DNA of 64,000 nucleotides, from positions 6,927 to 70,926 of the forward strand of contig JAGYJY010000026.1 in the NCBI GenBank assembly GCA_018401745.1, read 5' to 3'. The position numbers were made by a program, and so were the translations under genes. The stretch is from Pirellulales bacterium. GTDB lineage: Bacteria; Planctomycetota; Planctomycetia; Pirellulales; UBA1268. This document shows positions 18,717 to 29,072 of the stretch, piece after piece; position 1 is the stretch's first letter, and each line of letters begins with the position of its first letter. The notes beneath the pieces were generated by a model, which saw only the letters and a program-made list of their open reading frames with translations, ran no database searches and was not told the DNA's origin.

Positions 18717-19293
18717 GGGGTGCTGTCAGGAGCGTGCTAGCACCCTATCTTGGGCCCCCCCCTCGCTCCCACCACAAAATCATGTCTTTTGCTTGCCATT
18801 GCTGTCTCCATCGCTAACCTCTGCCCATTGCGGTTGTCGGCCGTCCGGAACGGGGGCAACCGCGAGACCAGCTCGATGACGGTATTGGCCTGCTCTCACA
18901 CATGTCAGTGAGAGTGGCCCGGCATCCAAGGATGGATCCGACCGGTAACGAGGCGCGGTCGCTGATTCGTTTCGCCATCCGGCGACTCGAGATGCGGTCG
19001 TTGGGGCACAGAGCCTTGCATGCGACTGAGCATGCGGGGCAAAACGGCATCAACGAGGATCAGCGTGAAGGATTACGCTATCGAACGTGTGGAGGCAATC
19101 GAAGAAGCCAGTGGTTTCGGCCGCTGGCGGGTTCGATGTGTCGCCATTTTCTTGCCGCTGCACATGCATGTGCCGCCTGCCCATTTTCTCTCCGCGTCGC
19201 GTTCTCTCCTGGGCCTACGCCGGGGGTCGTTTCGACCACCCCGTTTTCTGGCACCGCAGAGGCACCCGGACGGTGCCTGGAGGACAGAAGGAC

Positions 19294-20040
19294 ATGGCAG
19301 GAAAACCGCTGATTGGCATCACCATGGACTATCGAGCGTCGCGGAAGGAGCACGCGGCCCTCTCGTTCGTCGCGGCCGGCTACTATGACGGCGTGATTGC
19401 CTCAGGCGGCATTCCGATCGCGCTTCCCCCGATCGCAGAGGAAGACGATCTCGTGCGGCTGCTGGACATGCTCGATGGTGTGGTGCTCATCGGCGGCGGC
19501 GATCTCGATCCCCGTCGCGATGGCTACATGCCCCATCCTGCCACACGGACGATGGACGCCCGTCGTGAAGACTTCGACCGCATGCTCATGTCGGAAATCT
19601 GTCGCCGGCAGATGCCGGTCTTGGCCATCGGCAGCGGCATGCAGCTGCTCAACATCACCGAAGGCGGCACGGTCTTCCTTCACATCCCTGAGGATCTCCC
19701 CAAGGCCATGCCCCACAAGGATCCGATCGACATGTCCCATCGACACGCCCTCGAGGTCGTTCCGGGCACGGTCATGGAGCGGGTCTATGGCGACGGCGAG
19801 ATCCGCGTCAACAGCATGCACCACATGGCCATCGACGACCTCGCGGCAAACTTCCGCGTGGCCGCCCGCTCGCCCGACGGTGTGATCGAAGCGATCGAGA
19901 GCACCGTCGAAAGCTGGGTGGCCATCGGCACGCAGTTCCACCCCGAGGCCGAAAACGCCTCCGCCCTCGACGCCAAGATCTTCGAGGAGTTTGTGATCGG
20001 CATCACTGGCGAAGTGCCTGCCGTGAAGCTCGTGGCCTAA
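19294..20040 (+). CDS. Peptidase C26 / class I glutamine amidotransferase-like protein (gamma-glutamyl-GABA hydrolase family), nucleophile Cys absent
   Basis: LIGITMDY, VVLIGGGDLDP and GTQFHPE are family motifs, but the canonical (G/A)ICRGxQ is AIGSGMQ here. ATG 19294 is preceded by GGAGGA. Confidence 0.8.
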   Translation: MAGKPLIGITMDYRASRKEHAALSFVAAGYYDGVIASGGIPIALPPIAEEDDLVRLLDMLDGVVLIGGGDLDPRRDGYMPHPATRTMDARREDFDRMLMSEICRRQMPVLAIGSGMQLLNITEGGTVFLHIPEDLPKAMPHKDPIDMSHRHALEVVPGTVMERVYGDGEIRVNSMHHMAIDDLAANFRVAARSPDGVIEAIESTVESWVAIGTQFHPEAENASALDAKIFEEFVIGITGEVPAVKLVA

Positions 20041-20070
20041 GCCACCGCGACCTCTCAAGACCATCACAAA

Positions 20071-20109
20071 CCCTCCCCGGGCGGCCCACTGCCCGGGGAG
20101 GGTTTTTTT
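20071..20109 (+). terminator. Rho-independent terminator downstream of the C26 gene
   Basis: Perfect 12-bp GC stem CCCTCCCCGGGC / GCCCGGGGAGGG with an 8-nt loop, followed by T7 (20103-20109). It starts 31 nt after the stop codon. Confidence 0.8.
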
Positions 20110-20115
20110 CGGCAA

Positions 20116-20687
20116 GGAAACGGGACGGGTCCTCGGGCCGCGAAGCGGCCTCGGCGAAGCCGAGGTGCCTGCGGCACCCGAAGACCCGTCCCGCTTGCGC
20201 AGCACCCGCGCGCTGACGCCCACCGCACCGCCCCCCGCCCCGCTGCCCCCCGGCCGCAGACCGACGCGCAGCGGCGGACAGAAAAGGAAACGGGACGGGT
20301 CCTCGGGCCGCGAAGCGGCCTCGGCGGAGCCGAGGTGCCTGCGGCACCCGAAGACCCGTCCCGCTTGCGCAGCACCCGCGCGCTGACGCCCACCGCCCCG
20401 CTGCCCCCCGGCCGCAGACCGACGCGCAGCGGCGGACAGGCCGGCCCTTAAAACCGTAAGCGAGGGGTGAGCCCGGGCCGAATGAGCCGGCCTTGCAGTC
20501 GAGCGCAGCCCGGAGGGCGAAAGCGAGAATGCACGAGTGAGCGAAGCCAGGATGGCGAAGCGAACGCTCGGCGAATCGGCTTGGGCTCACCCCGAGCGAC
20601 CCCGAACGCTCGGCGAATCGGCTTGGGCTCACCCCGAGCGACCCCGAACGCTCGGCTCATCGGCTTAGGCTCACCCCGAGCGCCCCC
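20116..20687 (+). repeat. Composite structured intergenic repeat element, copy A (2 x ~170-nt hairpin modules + conserved core + 3 x 42-nt hairpin units)
   Basis: Module 20116-20285 is duplicated at 20286-~20443. The core 20447-20687 matches 28418-28658 with 6 mismatches in 241 nt by my count. Tandem 42-nt units lie at 20562-20603, 20604-20645 and 20646-20687. Confidence 0.9.
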
Positions 20688-20786
20688 AACCGTTAAAAGC
20701 CGAAACCTCAACGCGGCATGCCAAACGGCGGGCTAAGGTAGAGCAGGCACAAGATGGTCTCGGTTGCTCCCCGGCATTGCAAACCC

Positions 20787-22673
20787 ATGCTCACTGATTT
20801 CGACCTGCACCTCCTCGGCGAGGGCCGCCACTGGAAAAGCTACGAGAAGCTCGGCAGCCAGCTGACGGACGTGGATGGCGTGGCGGGCACCAGTTTCGCG
20901 GTCTGGGCACCGAATGCCGACATGGTCAGCGTGGTGGGCGACTTCAATGGCTGGGACGGTCGCAGCCATGCAATGCACAAACGGATTCCCTCGGGCTTTT
21001 GGGAGCTGTTTGTGCCCGGGGCGGGCGTGGGGACGGCCTACAAGTTTCGCGTGTTCTCCGGTGGCGGCTTCACGGATCGTACCGACCCCTACGGCTTTGC
21101 AGCAGAGGTGCCGCCGAGGACCGCGTCGCTGGTGGCCGACCTCAGTGCCTACACATGGCGAGACGCCGACTGGATGGCGGCCCGTGCCCAGCGGGATCCG
21201 CTGACGACGGCGATGACCACCTACGAGGTGCACCTCGGCAGCTGGCGGCGGCCGGGCGACAATCCTACGCGATGGCTGACCTATCAGGACCTGGAGCGAG
21301 AGCTGGTGCCCTATGTGGCGGAGATGGGCTTCACGCACGTGGAGTTTCTGCCGCCGACGGAGCATCCGCTCTCGGCGAGCTGGGGCTACCAGACGATCGG
21401 GCTGTTTGCAGCAACGAGCCGGTTTGGCACGCCGCAAGACTTCATGTCGCTGGTGGATGCCTTCCACCGGGCTGGTATCGCCGTGGTCATCGACTGGGTG
21501 CCGGCGCACTTTCCGCGTGATGGCCATGGCCTGAGGCGGTTTGATGGCACCGCGCTCTACGAGCATGAAGACCCCCGCAAGGGCGAGCATCCCGACTGGG
21601 GCACGATGATCTTCAACTACGGCCGCAACGAGGTGGCCAACTATCTGATCTCGTCGGCGCTCTTCTGGCTCGACAAGTATCACATCGACGGGCTGCGGGT
21701 CGATGCGGTGGCCTCGATGCTCTATCTCGACTACAGCCGCGAGGAGGGGCAGTGGGTGCCCAACCGTCATGGCGGCCGCGAGAACCTTGAGGCGATCGAG
21801 CTGCTGAAGACCTTCAACATCCAGGTGCACGAGCAGTTTCCCGGTGCGGTCACGATTGCCGAAGAATCGACCGCCTGGGGCGGCGTGTCACGGCCAACCT
21901 ACGACGGCGGGCTTGGGTTCACGTTTAAGTGGAACATGGGCTGGATGAACGACACGCGTCGGTACATGCGGCATGATCCCGTGCATCGCAAGTATCACCA
22001 CGATGAGCTGACCTTCAGCCTGATCTACTCGTTCCACGAAAACTTTGTTTTACCGCTCTCCCACGACGAAGTGGTGCACGGCAAAGGCTCACTGATCGAT
22101 CAGATGCCCGGCGATACCTGGCAGAAGTTTGCCAACCTGCGGCTGCTCTACACCTACATGTGGTGCCATCCCGGCAAGAAGCTGCTCTTTATGGGCGGCG
22201 AGTTTGGGCAGTGGCAGGAGTGGAACTTCGACGAGAGCCTGCATTGGCACCTGCTGCAGTGGGACAGCCACCGAGGGCTCAAGCGGGCTGTGGCCGACCT
22301 CAATGCCCTCGTCCGCGATGAGCCTTCGCTGCATGAGGTCGACTTCGATCCGGCGGGCTTTGAATGGATCGACTGCCACAACTGGCAAGACAGCATTCTC
22401 GCCTTCGTCCGCCGCGGACGCCGCCCGGAAGACTTCGTGGTGGTGGTCTGCAACTTTACGCCGGTCGTGCGACAGGGCTACCGGCTCGGAGTGCCGCACG
22501 AGGGACCGTATCAGGAGCGGTTCAACAGCGACTCCCGCTACTACGACGGCAGCAACGTGGGCAACATCGGCACGCTGATGGCGACCACAACCCGTCATCA
22601 CGGGAGGCCGGCAAGCCTAACGCTCACGCTTCCGCCGCTGGCTGCCATCGTGCTCACGCCCTGGCGCGGCTGA
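20787..22673 (+). CDS. glgB: 1,4-alpha-glucan branching enzyme
   Basis: GH13 branching-enzyme motifs ([43 protein letters not shown]). Start at ATG 20787 ([13 protein letters not shown]). Confidence 0.9.
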
Positions 22674-22700: not shown

Positions 22701-25040
22701 TCAGCGGCCGGGCATGCGGGGCTGCCGCTCCCAGCGGAGCTGATACCGGTCTTCCAGACCCTCGATCCACCGCTCAAACACGCCGGCATACGACTGCTGG
22801 GCAACCTGGTCGATCGGCATGGTGTCGTCACGACGGACGAGAAACTGCGCTCGAAGTTCTGAGTCGGGGGGCGATAGCGAGAGCAGTCGGATGCAGTAGC
22901 AGACCGTCTGCGGCTCGTTGAAGGCGGCGGCCGTTTCACCAGGGGCGAGCGAAAACGCTGCCTTCATAAAGTCGTTGCCCGGCAGGAAGGCTCCAGGCGG
23001 CTGCGACAGCTGCGGCATGCCGCTGGCCACGTCGTACCAGGCAAACGGTCCAACCTGCGTCATGGTGACATCGCCGCGGTCGGTCGCGAGCTGCTCAAGC
23101 GAGACGTCGCGGCTCCGGGCCTGCTCGGCAAGTTCTTCAGCCTCTTTGCGGGCCAGGTCGCGGGCCTCCATGATTCGCCAGGCCTTTTCGACGTTGTCTC
23201 GGGCAGCCGCGAAGGTGGGGACAAACTCCGGCTGATCCTGAGTCTTCCAGGAGAGGAAACGGGCTCCGAGCATGTCGCGAGACGTCTGCGGCCGGAGCGT
23301 CATGGAGTTCTCACCAAACATCATCTCCAGCCATGACCTCTGGCGAATCCCAAACCGGCTGCCTGGATCGGGCACGAGCTCAAAGCTCCGGCCAATACCA
23401 GGCTCCTCGGCTGCATCGACAGGGGCCACGAGCTCGGATCGCCCGGCCGTGAGGCCCTGCGTCTCGGCAATCTTGTCGAAATCGGGCGGCGTGGGAGGCT
23501 CTGTGCCGGTTTCGCCGCGTGCCTGCCAGAGGGCGTAGTCTTCTCCGTAGGCTGTCAGGTCGGCTGCCACGGCCGAAAAGATGGCGTCAATCTGGGCTTC
23601 GGCCTTCTCGGCCGCGAGCAGGTCGCGAATCTCTTCGGTGACCTCAGCCAAGGGCCTGAATCCGTCGTTGGCAAGAGGATCTGCGGCAGGGGGCTCAGCC
23701 TCACTCGTCGCTTCAGCAGCAGGCTCGGCAGCAGGCTCGGCAGCAGGCTCGGCAGCAGGCTCGGCAGCAGGCTCGGCAGCAGGCTCGGCAGCAGGCTCGG
23801 CAGCAGGCTCGGCAGCAGGCTCGGCAGCTTCTGCCGCTTCAGTTGATTCGACGGGAGGCGACGACTCGCTGGCAGCAGCCTCCTCCTCGCCGTCAGCCTG
23901 CCGGGCCGATGTCAGCACAAACGGCGACCTCCTGCGAGGCAGCGCAGCCCCGTCTGTTGTTTCAGCAGCAGGTTCCTCAGCAGCAGGTTCCTCAGCAGCA
24001 GGTTCCTCAGCAGCAGGTTCCTCAGCAGCAGGTTCCTCAGCAGCAGGTTCCTCAGCAGCAGGCTCCTCAGCAGCAGGCTCCTCAGCAGCAGGCTCCTCAG
24101 CAGCAGGAGCCTCAGCAGCAGGAGCCTCAGCAGCAGGAGCCTCAGCAGCAGGTGCCTCAGCAGCAGGGGCCGTTCCGGCAGCAGCCCGGTAGCGAGTCGC
24201 CTTGTTTTGTTCGTAGTAGGCGGCGATCTCCTCGTCAGTTACGTCTGGCTTGAAACGATCCACAAACGCTGTGCGATCTGCCGTGAGATACTCAAACGCC
24301 ACGCGATGAGGCTCGCGGAAGCCCGGATTCGCGCTTGAGGGCTCCGGCAGCAGCTCCTTGTAGTCGTCGTACAGTGCCTCCAGGACGGAATCCGAGGGAG
24401 CCTCAACGCGGTCGGCCAGCGACTCGCAGGTGACCGGGATCACCTCGACGATCGCCTTCTGCTCGAGCCGGCGAAATGCATCCCACCGCCAGCCGGGCGG
24501 GTCTCCGGAAAAGCCAGTCTGGAAAAGCAGGAGCATGTTGCGGGCCGTGAGCTCATACCGCAGCGCCTCGAAGACATCGGGCTCTGAAACGCTGAGCCTA
24601 CCCAGTTGCAAACTGCCGAGGATCTGATTGAACTGCTCTGCCCGCACCTGGCTGTTGGTCCATTCAGCCAGAAAATCGTTGACGGAGCGGTCGGTCACCA
24701 CGATCCCGACGTTTCGTGCTTCTTCCACGAGCAGCCGCGTGCGAACAACAGCGTCTTCACTTTCAGGAAAGAGGGGCAGCCTCGATGGGTCGCGGCCCGC
24801 CTGCACAGCCGCTTCCAGCAGGAAGCGGTTGAGCACCGCCCGCATCGTGACCGACCGTTCGAGATCACTCTCTCGGATCTCGCCACCGCTCCAGCGGGCG
24901 ACCAGCGGATCGCCTGCCAGCGTGCTGCTTCCCATCTGCAGAAACGGAGGCAACACAAAGAAGGCGAGCATCGCCATGATGGCCACAAAGACCAGCAACG
25001 ACTTTTGATAGCGGCGAAAAACGTCGAACGAACCGGCCAT
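22701..25040 (-). CDS. Membrane-anchored periplasmic chaperone-like protein (PpiD/SurA N-terminal-domain-like) with long acidic Ala/Glu/Pro repeat linker
   Basis: N-terminal signal anchor (LLVFVAIMAMLAFFVLPPF), followed by a SurA_N-like region. The centre has 13 x (AAE[A/E]P) and 9 x (EPAA). The CDS is solid; the functional call is tentative. Confidence 0.5.
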   Translation of the reverse strand: MAGSFDVFRRYQKSLLVFVAIMAMLAFFVLPPFLQMGSSTLAGDPLVARWSGGEIRESDLERSVTMRAVLNRFLLEAAVQAGRDPSRLPLFPESEDAVVRTRLLVEEARNVGIVVTDRSVNDFLAEWTNSQVRAEQFNQILGSLQLGRLSVSEPDVFEALRYELTARNMLLLFQTGFSGDPPGWRWDAFRRLEQKAIVEVIPVTCESLADRVEAPSDSVLEALYDDYKELLPEPSSANPGFREPHRVAFEYLTADRTAFVDRFKPDVTDEEIAAYYEQNKATRYRAAAGTAPAAEAPAAEAPAAEAPAAEAPAAEEPAAEEPAAEEPAAEEPAAEEPAAEEPAAEEPAAEEPAAEEPAAETTDGAALPRRRSPFVLTSARQADGEEEAAASESSPPVESTEAAEAAEPAAEPAAEPAAEPAAEPAAEPAAEPAAEPAAEPAAEATSEAEPPAADPLANDGFRPLAEVTEEIRDLLAAEKAEAQIDAIFSAVAADLTAYGEDYALWQARGETGTEPPTPPDFDKIAETQGLTAGRSELVAPVDAAEEPGIGRSFELVPDPGSRFGIRQRSWLEMMFGENSMTLRPQTSRDMLGARFLSWKTQDQPEFVPTFAAARDNVEKAWRIMEARDLARKEAEELAEQARSRDVSLEQLATDRGDVTMTQVGPFAWYDVASGMPQLSQPPGAFLPGNDFMKAAFSLAPGETAAAFNEPQTVCYCIRLLSLSPPDSELRAQFLVRRDDTMPIDQVAQQSYAGVFERWIEGLEDRYQLRWERQPRMPGR
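23715..23826 (-). repeat. In-frame tandem repeat, about 9 x 12 bp (encodes EPAA)
   Basis: Unit gcagcaggctcg is repeated head-to-tail on the + strand inside CDS 22701..25040. Confidence 0.9.
23950..24165 (-). repeat. In-frame tandem repeat, about 13 x 15 bp (encodes AAEEP / AAEAP)
   Basis: Units cagcaggttcctcag, cagcaggctcctcag and cagcaggagcctcag are repeated head-to-tail. The three sequence variants are clustered in blocks. Confidence 0.9.
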
Positions 25041-25279: not shown

Positions 25280-28042
25280 ATGGCGAAAAAACCCTCCGCT
25301 GGCGGCAAACCGTTGGTGATCGTCGAGTCTCCCGCGAAGGCTCGCACCATCTCGAAGTTTCTCGGAGGCAGCTACAACGTCGAGGCCAGCGTGGGGCACA
25401 TCCGCGACCTGCCGCACAACGCGGCGGAGGTGCCTGCCGCGATGCGAGGCAAGCCCTGGGCAAGAATGGGCGTCAACATCGATGAGGATTTTGCCCCGAT
25501 CTACATCGTGTCGCCGCAGAAGAAGAAGCAGGTTGACAAGCTCAAGGCCCTCCTCGCCCAGGCCCCTGCCCTCTATCTGGCAACAGACGAAGACCGCGAG
25601 GGCGAGGCCATTAGCTGGCATCTGACCGAGGTGCTCAAGCCGCGGGTGGAGGTGCACCGGCTCGTGTTTCACGAGATCACGAGGTCGGCCATCGAGGCTG
25701 CCCTGGAGCATCCACGAACGATCAACACGTCGCTCGTCGATGCGCAAGAGACCCGACGCATTCTCGACCGGCTCTACGGCTACGAGGTCTCACCTCTGCT
25801 CTGGAAGAAGGTGGGCCCTAAGCTCTCGGCGGGCCGTGTGCAGAGCGTGGCGGTGCGGCTGCTCGTGGAGCGGGAGCGGGCTCGGATGGCCTTTCGTTCC
25901 GGCACCTGGTGGGATCTTTCGGCGGTGTTTGCCGCGAGGCCACCGCACCCGTCGGCAGGCTTTGACGCCCGGCTCACCAGCCTCGCCGGCCGCCCGTTGG
26001 CCAAGGGGAGCGACTTCGATTCAGCGACCGGCCGATTGAAAAACGAGCGTGCGCTGCTCCTCGACGAGCAGGCCGCAGTCGACCTGCGAAACCAGTTGGA
26101 AACGGCGTCGTTTCGGGTGGCTGCCCGGGAAGACAAGCCCTTCACCCAGCGGCCGAGCCCACCGTTCACCACCAGCTCGCTGCAGCAGGAGGCCAACCGC
26201 AAGTGCGGCTTCACCGCCCGCCGCACGATGCAGGTGGCCCAGTCGCTCTATGAAAACGGCCACATCACCTACATGCGAACCGACTCAACGTCGCTGGCGG
26301 GCGAGGCGATCGCCGCCATCCGCAGGACGGTGGAGAAGCTCTACGGGGCCAGCCACCTGCCTGCCTCGCCACGGACCTACCGCACGAAAGTCGCCAACGC
26401 CCAGGAAGCCCACGAAGCGATCCGACCGGCCGGCACGGGCATGCCCACGCCTGAGTCGCTTCGCGGTCGGGTCGACGCCGACGGCCTGCGGCTCTACTCG
26501 CTGATCTGGAAGCGGACGATCGCCTGCCAGATGGCAGAGGCCCGCGGCCAGCAGACCACGCTCTGCATCGAGGCCGATCTCGCCGACGGCACACAGGCCC
26601 GCTTCACCGCCAGCGGCAAGACGATCGAGTTTGCCGGTTTTCTGCGAGCCTACGTGGAGGGCTCCGACGATCCTGCCGCAGACCTGGCCGACAAGGAGAC
26701 CATCCTGCCGCCGCTGGCGGTGGGAGATGCTGTCGACTGCCGCCTGCTGGAAGCCGCCAGCCACACCACGCAGCCGCCCGCCCGCTACACCGAAGCGACG
26801 CTGACAAAAGCCCTGGAAGAAAAGGGTATCGGCCGACCCAGCACCTACGCCGCCACGATCGACACGATCCAGCGGAGAGCGTATTGCTGCAAACGGGGCA
26901 ACGCGCTCGTGCCCACCTGGGTGGGCTTTGCCGTCTGCCAGCTCCTGGAGCAGAGCCTGCCAACCCTGATCGACTACGCCTTCACCGCAGGGATGGAAGA
27001 CGAGCTCGACGGCATCAGCCGAGGAGAAGGTGAGAAGGTCGGCTACCTCAAGAAGTTTTACTTCGGCAACGGCAAGCCCGGCCTCAAGAAACTGCTTGAA
27101 GACGCGGAGACCAAGATCGATCCCCGAAAAGCGAGCAGCATTCCGATCACAGACGACGTGGTGGTGCGTGTCGGCCGGTATGGCCCGTTCATTGAAGATG
27201 CCGAAGGCCGCCGGGCGACGCTGCCTCCCGAAGAGAAGCTCGCCCCGGATGAGCTCACAGCAGAGCGGTGTGCGGAGCTGCTGTCGAAGTCGTCGCAGGC
27301 GGATGAGCCGCTCGGGCATTGCCCCAAGACGGGGCTCCCCGTGTATGCCAAGAACGGCCGCTTCGGGCCGTATGTGCAGCTCGGCGATGCGGAAGAAGGC
27401 GGCTCCAAGCCGAAGTCGGCGTCGCTGCTCAAGGGCATGTCGCTGGAAACGATCGACCTGATCACCGCGGTTCGGCTGCTCGAACTCCCCCGTTCGCTCG
27501 GAGTGCATCCACAGAGCGGCAAGGAGATCACCGCCCTCAACGGTCGTTACGGCCCCTACATCACCTGCGATGGCGACTCGCGGAGCCTGCCAGACAATCT
27601 CTCGCCCCTGGACATCACCCTTCCCGAAGCCGTGCACCTGCTCAAGCAGCCAAAGGCCCGCGGCACGCGATCAGCCCCCGCAACATTGCAGACCCTCGGC
27701 ACGTCCCCGGTCACCGCCAAACCGGTCGTGCTCCTCAACGGCCGCTACGGCCCCTACGTCAGCGACGGTGAAACCAACGCCTCCCTTCCCAAGGGCACCG
27801 CGAGCAACGCCATGACCCTCAACAGCGCCCTCGCCCTACTCGCCACCCGCGCCGCCGCCGGCCCCCGTCGCGGCCGTGGCGGCAGAAGGACGGCCGCAAA
27901 GAAAGCCACCTCGAAAGCAGCAGCCAAAAAGGCCGCCATCAAAAAATCGGCCCCGAAAAAAGCCGCAAAGACAAAGGTCGCAAAGAAGAAGGCGACCACC
28001 AAGAAAACAGCCACAAAGAAAACGGCCAAGAAAGAAAGCTGA
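25280..28042 (+). CDS. topA: DNA topoisomerase I (type IA) with zinc-free repeat C-terminal domain and lysine-rich tail
   Basis: TOPRIM LVIVESPAKARTISKFLG and active-site region GHITYMRTDS. Four G(R)(Y/F)GP(Y/F) C-terminal repeats (VGRYGPFIE, NGRFGPYVQ, NGRYGPYIT, NGRYGPYVS). The tail is AAKKATSKAAAKKAAIKKSAPKKAAKTKVAKKKATTKKTATKKTAKK. Confidence 0.92.
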   Translation: MAKKPSAGGKPLVIVESPAKARTISKFLGGSYNVEASVGHIRDLPHNAAEVPAAMRGKPWARMGVNIDEDFAPIYIVSPQKKKQVDKLKALLAQAPALYLATDEDREGEAISWHLTEVLKPRVEVHRLVFHEITRSAIEAALEHPRTINTSLVDAQETRRILDRLYGYEVSPLLWKKVGPKLSAGRVQSVAVRLLVERERARMAFRSGTWWDLSAVFAARPPHPSAGFDARLTSLAGRPLAKGSDFDSATGRLKNERALLLDEQAAVDLRNQLETASFRVAAREDKPFTQRPSPPFTTSSLQQEANRKCGFTARRTMQVAQSLYENGHITYMRTDSTSLAGEAIAAIRRTVEKLYGASHLPASPRTYRTKVANAQEAHEAIRPAGTGMPTPESLRGRVDADGLRLYSLIWKRTIACQMAEARGQQTTLCIEADLADGTQARFTASGKTIEFAGFLRAYVEGSDDPAADLADKETILPPLAVGDAVDCRLLEAASHTTQPPARYTEATLTKALEEKGIGRPSTYAATIDTIQRRAYCCKRGNALVPTWVGFAVCQLLEQSLPTLIDYAFTAGMEDELDGISRGEGEKVGYLKKFYFGNGKPGLKKLLEDAETKIDPRKASSIPITDDVVVRVGRYGPFIEDAEGRRATLPPEEKLAPDELTAERCAELLSKSSQADEPLGHCPKTGLPVYAKNGRFGPYVQLGDAEEGGSKPKSASLLKGMSLETIDLITAVRLLELPRSLGVHPQSGKEITALNGRYGPYITCDGDSRSLPDNLSPLDITLPEAVHLLKQPKARGTRSAPATLQTLGTSPVTAKPVVLLNGRYGPYVSDGETNASLPKGTASNAMTLNSALALLATRAAAGPRRGRGGRRTAAKKATSKAAAKKAAIKKSAPKKAAKTKVAKKKATTKKTATKKTAKKES

Positions 28043-28180: not shown

Positions 28181-28658
28181 GGAAACGGGACGGGTCCTCG
28201 GGCCGCGAAGCGGCCTCGGCGAAGCCGAGGTGCCTGCGGCACCCGAAGACCCGTCCCGCTTGCGGCCGAACCGGTCCCGGCCGCGAGACCGACGCCGAAG
28301 CCGGCGGCCTGCGGCACCCGAAGACCCGTCCCGCTTGCGCAGCCCTACCCCGCGCCCACCCCGCCCAGCCCCGCCTTCCCCGGCCGCAGATCGCCGCGAA
28401 GCGGCGAACAGGCCGTCCTTAAACCCGTAAGCGAGGGGTGAGCCCGGGCCGAATGAGCCGGCCTTGCAGTCGAGCGAAGCCCGGAGGGCGAAAGCGAGAA
28501 TGCACGAGTGAGCGAAGCCAGGATGGCGAAGCGAACGCTCGGCGAATCGGCTTGGGCTCACCCCGAGCGACCCCGAACGCTCGGCGAATCGGCTTGGGCT
28601 CACCCCGAGCGACCCCGAACGCTCGGCTCATCGGCCCGGGCTCACCCCGAGCGACCCC
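28181..28658 (+). repeat. Composite structured intergenic repeat element, copy B
   Basis: Same hairpin module (28181-~28265, partial second copy ~28307-28345), same core (28418-28658) and the same 3 x 42-nt units (28533-28574, 28575-28616, 28617-28658) as copy A. Lies between the convergent topA and acpS genes. Confidence 0.9.
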
Positions 28659-28673: not shown

Positions 28674-29072
28674 TCACTCACCTCCAGGCAGCTCATCCAG
28701 GGCCACCGCGTAGGCCGTGGCATGCGAGCGACAGTGCGAGATACTCACCAGAACGCAGCGAATGCCGAGTTTCTCGGCGATCTCCAGGGTGCCTCCCTGG
28801 AGCCGAGCCACAGGCCGGCCAGCGGCGGTGTTGCGAACCTCGATGTCTCTCCAGCTGATACCCCGCCGCCAGCCTGTGCCAATCGCCTTGAGCACGGCCT
28901 CTTTGGCAGCCCAGCGTCCGGCGAAGTGCTGGGTGGCCATGCGACGGCTGCGGCAGTAGTCGATTTCGTGCGGCGTATACACGCGGCTGACGAAGAGCTC
29001 GCCGTGCCGCTCAATCATCTGGGCGATCCGCAGGCATTCGGTGATGTCGGTGCCGATTCCGAGCACACTCAT
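28674..29072 (-). CDS. acpS: Holo-[acyl-carrier-protein] synthase
   Basis: [26 protein letters not shown] and 132 aa. Its start overlaps the trpS stop by 4 nt. Confidence 0.88.

Follow-up and report, generated by a model that had tools for sequence, protein, structure and literature searches.

A multi-copy, Y-shaped structured repeat element in the topA–acpS spacer of a Pirellulales bacterium

Two copies of a composite repeat

The window analysed here is a stretch of 64,000 nt from a Pirellulales bacterium (assembly GCA_018401745.1, contig JAGYJY010000026.1, positions 6,927-70,926 of the forward strand), and coordinates are window positions unless a locus is named. The spacer between topA (25280-28042, + strand; Pfam Topoisom_bac, Toprim and Toprim_C_rpt) and the convergent acpS gene downstream (28674-29072, − strand; Pfam ACPS) holds one copy of a repeated element, copy B (region 28418-28658). 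Copy A (region 20447-20687) lies between two co-directional genes, a peptidase C26 gene upstream (19087-20040, + strand) and a glgB-like gene downstream (20754-22673, + strand); both gene contexts had been described correctly in an earlier note on this DNA. Aligned without gaps, the two regions differ at 6 of 241 positions (28424, 28477, 28636-28638 and 28654 in copy B), the number counted in that note, and are thus 97.5% identical. The note's further claim that the flanks are unrelated is true of the sequence directly after the last 42-nt unit and of that beyond about 240 nt upstream, where the copies diverge, but the intervening ~240 nt share a cloverleaf, a C-rich tract and a mini-hairpin at 66-98% identity, in rearranged form.

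Each copy contains a canonical Y element on the + strand, at 28429-28570 in copy B (85 bits, E=3.2e-16, model positions 1-145) and at 20458-20599 in copy A (84.5 bits, E=4.1e-16), as scored with covariance model R1, which was trained on 14 copies, all from other organisms and without the window copies. Five ORFs overlap the two copies, and none of them matched Pfam. A sigma-70 promoter scan around both copies, with a consensus that is uninformative for this phylum, found no promoter. An intrinsic-terminator-like hairpin with a T7 run (AAACCCTCCCCGGGC...GCCCGGGGAGGGTTTTTTT, 20069-20110, + strand; perfect 15-nt arms at 20068-20082 and 20091-20105) stands 3' of the peptidase C26 gene and upstream of the entire copy A array, so read-through transcription into that array is not assured.

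The 3' part of each copy consists of three tandem 42-nt units, each of which repeats the 3' strands of stem P2 and the outer stem P1. They span 28532-28658 in copy B (+ strand; Tandem Repeats Finder period 42, 3.0 copies, 95% matches) and 20561-20687 in copy A (+ strand), where the third unit carries T, T and A at its three variable positions, as previously read. The 5' arm of P1 in copy B (GGGGTGAGCCCGGGCCGA, 28435-28452, + strand) can pair with any of the three 3' arms, forming 16 Watson-Crick pairs and two G·U pairs with each of 28547-28564 and 28589-28606, and pairing perfectly with TCGGCCCGGGCTCACCCC (28631-28648), which had rightly been recognised as its exact reverse complement. Arm-pairing energies for units 1 to 3 are −52.2, −52.2 and −63.5 kcal/mol. 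Unit 1 closes the canonical fold, while unit 3 (28616-28658) supplies the perfect complement of the 5' arm; the canonical family fold needs one 3' arm, and units 2 and 3 are lineage-specific extras. Unit number varies, with two or three units in strains whose AcpS is 99% identical, and metagenome contigs encoding exactly this AcpS all terminate within the units.

Several companion modules lie upstream of the Y elements. The mini-hairpin module of copy B (28384-28414, + strand, −14.1 kcal/mol), composed of CCGCAG, the hairpin itself (28391-28407) and ACAGGCC, is located 14 nt 5' of the Y element. Its hairpin reads TCGCCGC-GAA-GCGGCGA and that of copy A CCGACGC-GCA-GCGGCGG (20419-20435), the closing pair being T-A in one and C-G in the other. 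The earlier note took this difference for a compensatory change that preserves pairing, a view favoured by the recurrence of the same closing-pair change in other copies and weakened by an internal A·G mismatch in the copy A hairpin. The copy A hairpin is also no stabler than shuffled sequence (z = 0.27). A mini-hairpin is found directly upstream of Y elements at nine loci of the clade, one of which (L048) shows a C-G to A-T double change, and the module carries compensatory and G·U changes across the clade loci. Between the mini-hairpin and a cloverleaf remnant runs a C-rich, G-poor tract (28339-28383, + strand), which belongs to repeat families D5 and D6 and is shared with 20198-20257 and 20368-20415. 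The cloverleaf module (28181-28266, + strand; families D4 and D5), in which an outer stem GGGACGGGTC/GACCCGTCCC surrounds three short hairpins, has a predicted fold of −60 kcal/mol (z = −5.5), and its 3' half recurs as a partial second copy at 28307-28338. All three inner cloverleaf hairpins show compensatory changes at locus L017, and at L064:880-950 and L053:68-138 the module stands alone, with no Y element. Upstream of copy A, at 20114-20453 (+ strand), the set of cloverleaf, C-rich tract and mini-hairpin is present twice in tandem, each time 170 nt long, with 96% identity between 20114-20239 and 20284-20409 (family D4).

A wider family with a covarying, strand-specific fold

The window copies are members of a large family. 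A genome scan with an exact pattern matched ~23 contigs from a single Planctomycetaceae MAG, most matches lying at the ends of the contigs, as well as two further planctomycete MAGs, and a pattern scan of metagenomes returned at least 120 loci. With the covariance model, 123 copies of the Y element were detected at E<1e-5 in sampled metagenome and MAG contigs; family members score 40-157 bits, and their opposite strand ~20 bits. Two matches to the conserved 24-nt motif lie in the window, compared to 0.02 expected. Density reaches 5 Y-element copies per 11 kb, and at one locus (L132) almost every spacer contains one. The hosts are Pirellulales (Planctomycetota), with many copies per genome, and, for a soil subfamily, likely Eremiobacterota.

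We also searched existing catalogues. At gathering thresholds, Rfam 15 gave a single match in the window, a tRNA away from the element, and no match at 14 other loci; in E-value mode, three copies returned chance-level microRNA-like hairpins and sub-threshold fragments of RsmW, M23 and Acido-1 only. Scans of viral contigs gave no matches, distant BLAST against plasmid and phage collections left the element unmatched, and a literature search on planctomycete repeats, structured RNAs and the core sequence found no description of it. The ~145-nt Y-shaped repeat was therefore previously uncatalogued, lying outside Rfam 15 in the searches run and undescribed in the literature searched.

The core unit, about 145 nt long, is built from a long outer stem (P1), a short stem (P2) and a three-way junction from which two arms emerge, each ending in a conserved GGA-containing loop. 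In copy B, P1, P2, arm A (P3 and the P4 hairpin) and arm B (P5 and the P6 hairpin) are all present, and the minimum-free-energy fold (−80.1 kcal/mol) has the family architecture. The motif AGCGNAGCCCGGAGGGCGARAGCG is near-invariant across the family, and the near-invariant core located by pattern match in copy B (AGCGAAGCCCGGAGGGCGAAAGCG, 28473-28496, + strand) consists of columns that are invariant or at least 90% conserved among 122 distinct copies. It includes the P4 hairpin GCCC-GGA-GGGC (28479-28489), flanked by a purine-rich internal loop; the arm A consensus, AGCG-N-A-GCCC-GGA-GGGC-GARAGCG, is likewise near-invariant. In the P6 hairpin GCC-AGGAU-GGC (28517-28527, + strand; alignments A1 and A4), the stem covaries (GGCC/GGCC, GGGC/GCCC, GGUC/GACC) around an unchanged GGA(U) loop, and the GGAU loop of arm B is kept across the family. 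GGA is invariant in both terminal loops, which lie ~42 nt apart, and the junction strands AGNGA and GARCGUCC are conserved. P1, 18-33 bp long, is free in sequence and strict in pairing, its arms being the most variable part of the element and the interior the conserved part. The termini read GCGA-GGGG...CCCC-GAGC, and CGUAG and CGUC are confined to the interior, at the junction, with CGUAG in some subfamilies only. Clearly homologous copies range from ~129 to 175 nt and differ by indels that are not multiples of three, which, together with the absence of Pfam matches in the overlapping ORFs, indicates that the element is non-coding.

The fold is supported by several lines of evidence. In an alignment fitted to the model's structure, 90.3% of cells at modelled pairs are paired, compared to 34-45% with slid partners, and both sides have changed in 44 of the 47 pairs. 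The covariation score was 0.519, while slid partners and shuffles reached no more than 0.072 and 0.124, respectively, and none of 500 shuffles matched the observed pairing and covariation values. Independent RNAfold predictions gave an identical architecture in 15 divergent copies. G·U-type pairs outnumber A·C-type pairs 208:53 overall and 131:14 in P1, which shows the fold to be strand-specific. This strong preservation of the fold by paired mutations identifies a real structured element. The earlier note's idea of a repeated element whose stems are functional is borne out: further copies exist, and their substitutions follow the stems and are not random.

Genomic setting and insertion history

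Most copies (104 of 123) are intergenic. Based on gene calls from a crude GC3-based caller, 49 junctions comprised 25 convergent, 14+8 co-directional and 2 divergent ones. The earlier note's view that no single type of gene junction fixes the element's position is correct for the two window copies, but the family strongly avoids divergent junctions. Beside co-directional neighbours, 14 sense copies against 8 antisense copies do not amount to a significant bias, and antisense copies or close inverted pairs occur at five loci. Both observations weaken a simple 3'-UTR model and resemble DNA-level repeats. Copies concentrate at gene 3' ends and build mosaics with other hairpin modules, and short-read assemblies break at the element in many samples.

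Comparison with relatives showed that both insertions are species-specific. The acpS–topA spacer measures 631 nt here versus 38-85 nt in lineages with 90-92% AcpS identity, and in a lineage with 86% AcpS identity it is 252 nt long and has no covariance-model match. Similarly, the peptidase C26–glgB spacer is 713 nt here versus 191-249 nt, without a model match, in relatives. The short, empty spacers at both loci (86-92% AcpS identity) indicate that neither insertion is shared, and the 97.5% identity of the window copies indicates a recent spread of the unit in this Pirellulales species. The empty spacers were too diverged to be aligned with the filled sites, leaving the insertion boundaries inexact. 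Target-site duplications, raised in the earlier note, were not seen: among 101 distinct flank pairs, whose boundaries are likewise inexact, the first 70 were inspected visually and showed no direct repeats.

Having collected the 313 ORFs within 2.5 kb of copies, we clustered them and found no transposase, reverse transcriptase or other partner family, nor a RAYT-like cluster, in these fragments of the carrier genomes. The largest cluster is a planctomycete PSCyt/PSD-type family that marks the host only, and no neighbouring gene family recurs beside the copies. In the same fragments no copy is split around an ORF, and all truncated model matches lie at contig ends. A group II intron was considered at locus L159, where the element is truncated by a sequence starting GTGCG, and was rejected for lack of Rfam support. 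In a marine subfamily, a same-sense hairpin followed by TTTTT lies 40-75 nt downstream of the element, a hint that the element there is RNA. Across the family, a terminator-like site occurs within 250 nt downstream in only 9 of 82 copies, and the window copies lack the T-run directly after P1 that would mark an intrinsic terminator.

Interpretation and comparison with known systems

We consider it fairly probable that the topA–acpS spacer carries one insertion of a dispersed, multi-copy, non-coding structured mobile or repeat element that acts as a folded single strand, probably RNA. The element is probably mobile, and its fold most likely acts as RNA rather than as single-stranded DNA. We think it is a selfish, non-autonomous element that comes to rest in the spacers behind genes, a place in which it would do little harm, and it might affect host genes. 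Its conserved core would form a recognition surface for a putative protein that copies, moves or binds it. Transcription, for example by read-through from topA, would produce a very stable structure (about −80 kcal/mol) displaying two GGA loops, which could serve as a protein-binding platform or as a barrier to 3' exonucleases. The 3' arm has been amplified into two or three tandem 42-nt units, which give the 5' arm a choice of closing partners. It is unlikely, though conceivable, that the Y unit belongs to a new, cross-phylum class of structured RNA and is itself the active component of a mobile system. It would then be copied via an RNA intermediate, or act as cofactor or guide of a putative recombinase, with catalysis or protein docking centred on the invariant core and GGA loops, and with the tandem 3' arms as footprints of the copying mechanism.

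A possible reading, though one we lean against, is a DNA-level mobile repeat of the REPIN or PATE kind, whose fold would form in the single-stranded DNA of one strand, for example the lagging-strand template, where a HUH-type or REP-associated tyrosine transposase would recognise and move it; any RNA would be incidental. High copy number, near-identical copies within one genome, presence or absence between species, inconsistent orientation to genes, close inverted doublets as in BIMEs and REPINs, and mosaic arrays with other hairpin modules all fit such a repeat, as do outer stems that are very long and perfect (up to 33 bp); a top-strand DNA substrate would likewise give strand-specific G·T tolerance. 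Known single-stranded DNA transposase substrates, however, are short simple hairpins, whereas the element spans 145 nt, branches at a three-way junction and conserves purine-rich internal loops as well as loop motifs. Its conservation is the opposite of that in MITEs and REPs, the interior being kept across phyla and the termini variable; the hairpin foot has no GTAG or CGTC tag, no RAYT-, TnpA- or TnpB-like neighbour recurs among the 313 flanking ORFs, and one subfamily has a same-sense terminator after the element. PMC11109978 does say that such motifs may matter as DNA. The idea of a simple recent segmental duplication, unconstrained in structure and without a wider family, has next to no chance of being correct: the identity of copies A and B over 241 nt would suit it, but it is refuted by 123 homologous copies in many organisms with covariation, and the abrupt divergence after the last 42-nt unit and beyond ~240 nt upstream and the breakage of many samples' assemblies at the repeat speak against it as well.

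Rather improbable, too, is a host regulatory RNA whose two GGA loops (P4 C-GGA-G and P6 CA-N-GGAU-G) bind a CsrA/RsmA-type protein, one dimer per element, with the copies acting as a sponge or placing the flanking mRNAs under CsrA control. Two invariant GGA loops ~42 nt apart favour it, the CsrA SELEX consensus is RUACARGGAUGU, which the P6 loop resembles, and the P6 hairpin matches RsmW of the Csr/Rsm clan weakly (16.4 bits, E=0.73), though far under the Rfam threshold. The P4 GGAGG could equally be a Shine-Dalgarno mimic, and the recent, species-specific insertions speak against any single locus having a host function that is conserved. CsrA has been reported together with FliW in Planctomycetes (PMC4682653), which favours this reading; tblastn found no csrA in 1.5 Mb of sampled sequence, an uninformative negative. 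We regard as very unlikely a new catalytic or guide RNA, either a self-cleaving ribozyme or the RNA part of an RNA-guided mobile system, which would explain a cross-phylum conserved core inside a proliferating element. The conserved three-way junction with its invariant junction purines, tandem G·A pairs beside arm B (G-A ... G-A-A) as in hammerhead stem II, and multi-copy proliferation in two phyla (the second likely Eremiobacterota) are compatible with it. Nevertheless, searches at E values up to 10 gave no Rfam match to hammerhead, twister, pistol, hatchet, HDV-like, HEARO or other such families, the CUGA box is missing, the hammerhead A14-equivalent position is A or G, and no nuclease or recombinase gene is associated among the neighbouring ORFs.

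If the preferred reading of a structured mobile or repeat element is true, a non-coding element that is very abundant and well folded is present in Planctomycetota and in at least one unrelated phylum, which would explain the fragmentation of short-read assemblies at gene 3' ends in these organisms. The covariance model can be used to mask or annotate its sites. The family also supplies a large natural alignment in which a three-way junction keeps its purine-rich loops and both GGA loops, a concrete target for a partner-protein search in which CsrA is a testable first guess.

The element shares features with several known systems. Hammerhead cores consist of the strands CUGANGA, GAAA and NUH; here the junction strands are AGNGA and GARCGU, without CUGA and with a varying third A. 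Like the TwoAYGGAY RNA (RF01731) and the Csr/Rsm sRNAs, the element has hairpin loops with a conserved GGA, P6 often reading A-Y-GGA-U. It differs from them in architecture and size and has no Rfam match, only P6 being Rsm-like (E=0.73). In ERIC/IRU, Correia (CREE), RUP, BOX and other bacterial MITE-like repeats the terminal inverted repeats are conserved, a target-site duplication is usual (TA for Correia) and the host range is narrow; these repeats are often co-transcribed with adjacent genes, may alter the stability of the mRNA and can be substrates of RNase III. The element resembles these repeats in its intergenic position, its length of about 100-150 nt and its long stem-loops, and differs from them in its freely covarying termini, its likely presence in at least two phyla and the lack of a visible target-site duplication. 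Terminal inverted repeats conserved across the family, which in MITEs serve as transposase binding sites, are absent, the arms being inverted but most variable, and the lack of flanking target-site duplications is a weak negative given inexact boundaries.

PMC11109978 describes the mobile/repeat sequence candidates (MRSC) of the Breaker-lab GC-IGR surveys, motifs that covary and occur in dozens of copies per genome. The element is similarly non-coding and strongly covarying, with inconsistent gene orientation and occurrence in several phyla, and thus has the multi-copy, covarying structure and gene-inconsistent orientation that define the category; our comparison covered part of its 250 unpublished motifs. 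MRSC-65-2, as described there, is a single long stem with repeated UYCCGG, sometimes beside a transposase gene, unlike the three-way junction found here with its different conserved core and no transposase neighbour. REPs are simple palindromes of 20-40 nt with an unpaired GTAG or CGTC tag, conserved within a genome and not across phyla (PMC3733652, PMC2817692). REP, BIME and REPIN repeats are also extragenic and high-copy, cluster at the 3' ends of genes and seldom separate divergent ones; they form mosaic arrays with other motifs and inverted doublets, keep a hairpin and interrupt short-read assemblies (PMC3733652, PMC2817692). The element matches them as a high-copy extragenic repeat with few divergent junctions and mosaic arrays, but it is no short palindrome and has no GTAG or CGTC end tag; it is ~145 nt long and branched, with 47 modelled pairs, a variable stem and a cross-phylum interior, and no RAYT was found among the neighbouring ORFs. 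On the preferred reading, its conserved interior and variable ends, the reverse of the pattern in MITEs and REPs, would point to propagation or recognition unlike classic terminal-repeat transposition.

Two window copies and a wider family

An ungapped scripted comparison of 28418-28658 (core of copy B) with 20447-20687 (core of copy A) returned 6 differences in 241 positions, the count given in the earlier note. They lie at 28424, 28477, 28636-28638 and 28654 and are divided among the spacer that precedes the element (one), the variable N of the family core (one), the third extra arm (three) and the tail (one). All six leave untouched the canonical fold (28429-28570 in copy B, 20458-20599 in copy A), a three-armed structure of ~145 nt that we call the Y element. 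Three tandem 42-nt units, repeats of its 3′ arm, close each copy (28532-28658 and 20561-20687). As had been described, TCGGCCCGGGCTCACCCC (28631-28648) matches the reverse complement of 28435-28452 at every position, the three variable positions read CCG in copy B and TTA in copy A, and the upstream mini-hairpin sequences agree, with a closing pair of T-A in copy B and C-G in copy A; the copy A stem contains an internal A·G mismatch, and its stability is not above that of shuffles. Pfam confirmed the flanking genes, placing copy B between convergent topA and acpS and copy A between a co-directional peptidase C26 gene and glgB-like gene. The upstream flank had wrongly been called unrelated: the ~240 nt before each core are made up of repeat modules that the two copies share.

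A covariance model built from 14 copies of one freshwater subfamily, with a hand-drawn structure of 47 pairs, scored the window cores at 85 bits (copy B) and 84.5 bits (copy A) and found only these two in the 64-kb window. Further copies exist, with 123 at E<1e-5 among the collected metagenome and MAG loci. An exact scan with 20 bases of the 42-nt unit, one genome per species, matched ~23 contigs of one Planctomycetaceae MAG (CALCGM01), mostly at contig ends, and interior copies in two further planctomycete MAGs; its other matches were single chance matches in high-GC genomes. BLAST with the window element on the matched loci gave copies 72-79% identical, with clear paired changes in the long stem (for example, GGGGTGAGCCC/GGGCTCACCCC to GGAGGGAGCCC/GGGCTCCCTCC) and the motif AGCGNNGCCYGGAGGGCNNNAGCG kept in all copies compared. 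This motif occurs twice in the window (0.02 expected) and at no fewer than 120 metagenome loci, with no match in viral contigs. All six metagenome contigs encoding exactly this AcpS end within 42-nt units, as expected when a repeat makes short-read assemblies collapse. A private duplication of the two window copies is ruled out by the copies in other MAGs and metagenomes.

AcpS homologues identify the host as a member of the Pirellulales and, because relatives have retained the gene order around acpS, filled and empty sites could be compared. The acpS-topA spacer is 631 nt in the window, 38-85 nt in relatives with 90-92% AcpS identity, and 252 nt without a model hit in a lineage with 86% identity; the peptidase C26-glgB spacer is 713 nt in the window and 191-249 nt in relatives, again without a model hit. 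Since the relatives' spacers are short or lack a model hit, both arrays were gained in this species' recent ancestry. In the 86% relative, near-identical palindromic hairpins GACAGGCTTCAGCCTGTC and GACAGGCTGAAGCCTGTC bracket the acpS-topA spacer (L200:6421-6672 and L202:6421-6671), which suggests that this relative has another REP-like repeat family.

In a soil subfamily, P2 is GGGG/CCCC and P1 stems reach 33 bp. The RpoB of one soil-type contig is closest to Eremiobacterota, so the family spans at least two phyla on the basis of this one contig and MAG-derived hit names. In L113 (1885-2500), on a likely Eremiobacterota contig, rpoB is followed directly by two opposite-orientation elements and one further long hairpin (2143-2322). 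Database entries for RpoB homologues from this group are often labelled partial, so contigs may break after rpoB.

A common fold under strand-specific constraint

Divergent copies have a single architecture. The long outer stem P1, free in sequence, is preceded by GCGA and followed by GAGC, which can enclose tandem G·A between two G-C pairs; an internal loop leads to P2, which is CCGG/CCGG in the planctomycete type and GGGG/CCCC in the soil type. Arm A runs from P3 through a purine-rich internal loop to the hairpin GCCC-GGA-GGGC, arm B from P5, often with purine-purine mismatches, to P6 with a GGAU loop, and the junction strands are AGNGA and GARCGU. Three mid-P5 pairs are mostly purine-purine and are better read as a conserved internal loop.

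Substitutions respect the stems, as the earlier note's reading demanded. Across 122 distinct aligned copies, standard pairs fill 90.3% of pair cells, compared to 34-45% with partners slid by 1-3 columns, and 44 of the 47 pairs show both-sided changes. Covariation scored 0.519; slid partners gave no more than 0.072 and shuffles no more than 0.124, and 0/500 shuffles reached the observed value. The alignment is fitted to the model and therefore biased toward structure, though the true pairs lead by a very wide margin. The same shape came from folding 15 divergent copies as single sequences. Covariance scores are also strand-specific: 40-157 bits on one strand, ~20 bits on its complement. On any one strand, transitions are expected to yield G·U- and A·C-type pairs equally. 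Because G·U-type pairs exceed A·C-type pairs (208 vs 53 in all, 131 vs 14 in P1), the fold is selected on the window's plus strand, as RNA or as strand-specific single-stranded DNA.

Repeat units, modules and genomic setting

A single 3′ arm is usual in the family; the subfamily of this species has two or three repeats of the 3′ strand of P2 plus P1. Strains with 99% identical AcpS carry 2 or 3 units in differing combinations, which is the behaviour of a variable-number tandem repeat. Any unit can serve as pairing partner of the 5′ arm; the third is the best one in copy B (-63.5 vs -52.2 kcal/mol), and the three are about equal in copy A. The mini-hairpin module (CCGCAG-hairpin-ACAGGCC) lies upstream of Y elements in this clade and shows compensatory and G·U changes. 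A cloverleaf module, in which an outer stem GGGACGGGTC/GACCCGTCCC encloses three 6-bp hairpins, occurs in the window at 20114-20283, 20284-20453 and 28181-28266 and elsewhere at L064:880-950 and L053:68-138; it is a separate repeat family, found with or without the Y element, with compensatory changes in all three hairpins (L017). The arrays are therefore mosaics of independent hairpin modules.

Within these arrays, a hairpin GCCTGCGAAGCCATCCTGGCCTTCGCAGGC occurs in L048 (minus strand, first 260 nt), L118:2300-2340 and L174:4550-4590. Its loop (CCAUCCUGG) is complementary to the window-type P6 loop (CCAGGAUGG), and from these sequences it could potentially be an inverted element fragment or a kissing-loop partner. 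In one freshwater subfamily (L074, L090, L124, L170) the Y element sits inside a larger conserved unit, with GTTCGCTGCTGCGC upstream and GCCCCGCATCTGCCGTGCCGAACAGGATTG ~35 nt downstream, which indicates further mosaic modules peculiar to that lineage.

With genes called by a crude GC3-based caller, 104 of 123 copies were intergenic. Among the 49 whose two neighbours were both called no more than 600 nt away, 25 junctions were convergent, 22 co-directional (14 sense, 8 antisense) and 2 divergent; divergent junctions are strongly avoided (25 vs 2, p ~6e-6 by our own binomial estimate, made by hand), and orientation relative to transcription shows no significant bias (14 vs 8). On some contigs almost all spacers contain a copy, and closely spaced inverted pairs occur. 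The neighbours (313 ORFs within 2.5 kb of copies) include no recurring gene family or transposase-like cluster, and target-site duplications, a check proposed earlier, were not visible by eye in the first 70 of 101 distinct flank pairs. No U-tract was found after the element; in one marine subfamily a same-sense hairpin with TTTTT follows 40-75 nt downstream. A textbook intrinsic terminator (20069-20110), a 15-bp GC-rich stem then T7, directly follows the peptidase C26 gene and precedes the entire copy A array; a consensus scan missed it because the T-run is partly inside the stem.

Two damaged elements were seen. One (L159:12703-13123) is interrupted downstream of arm A, where sequence beginning GTGCG takes over; this resembles the 5′ end of a group II intron but has no Rfam support. 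In the other (L185:10460-10600) the break falls in the P6 loop, and coding-like sequence continues from there. Separately, a SurA_N-like ORF (22701-25040, minus strand) contains near-perfect tandem repeats of 12 nt x 9.4 (23716-23828) and 15 nt x 13.7 (23962-24167); as its orthologues range from 713 to 797 aa in relatives, these look like a fast-evolving low-complexity coding repeat.

Nature of the element and comparison with known repeats

The element is non-coding, multi-copy and recently gained here, with structural constraint on one strand and an interior conserved across phyla, a profile best fitted by a selfish, non-autonomous mobile/repeat element whose single-strand fold would be what a partner protein recognises. 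We favour RNA as the acting form because the fold is large and branched, its non-helical purine loops are conserved, it is rich in G·U pairs, one subfamily comes with a same-sense terminator of its own, and the single-stranded DNA transposase substrates known are small simple hairpins. A repeat acting at the DNA level, like REPs, BIMEs or REPINs, is a serious if less likely rival; the inconsistent orientation of copies, the inverted doublets and the mosaic arrays speak for it. For an element acting as RNA, one guess from sequence is that the two invariant GGA loops might bind a CsrA-type dimer, with which the P6 loop sequence is compatible; there is a sub-threshold RsmW match, and CsrA has been reported in Planctomycetes (PMC4682653). 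Ribozyme and guide-RNA readings found no positive support.

Rfam 15 holds no family for the element, and our literature search, which included the core sequence itself, found no description; it covered supplementary tables in part, and an earlier listing there is possible. The observation is confirmed, and the earlier interpretation is supported and extended. In distribution the element is like REPs and MITEs, but REPs are short, simple and GTAG- or CGTC-tagged and MITEs have conserved termini, features that it lacks, and the target-site duplication typical of MITEs was not visible in its flanks. It agrees with the published description of 'mobile/repeat sequence candidates' (PMC11109978), although the example there is a single stem with a UYCCGG repeat. 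We conclude that the element is real and strongly structured, belongs to a kind of repeat already known in outline, and is distinctive in architecture, conservation pattern and host range.
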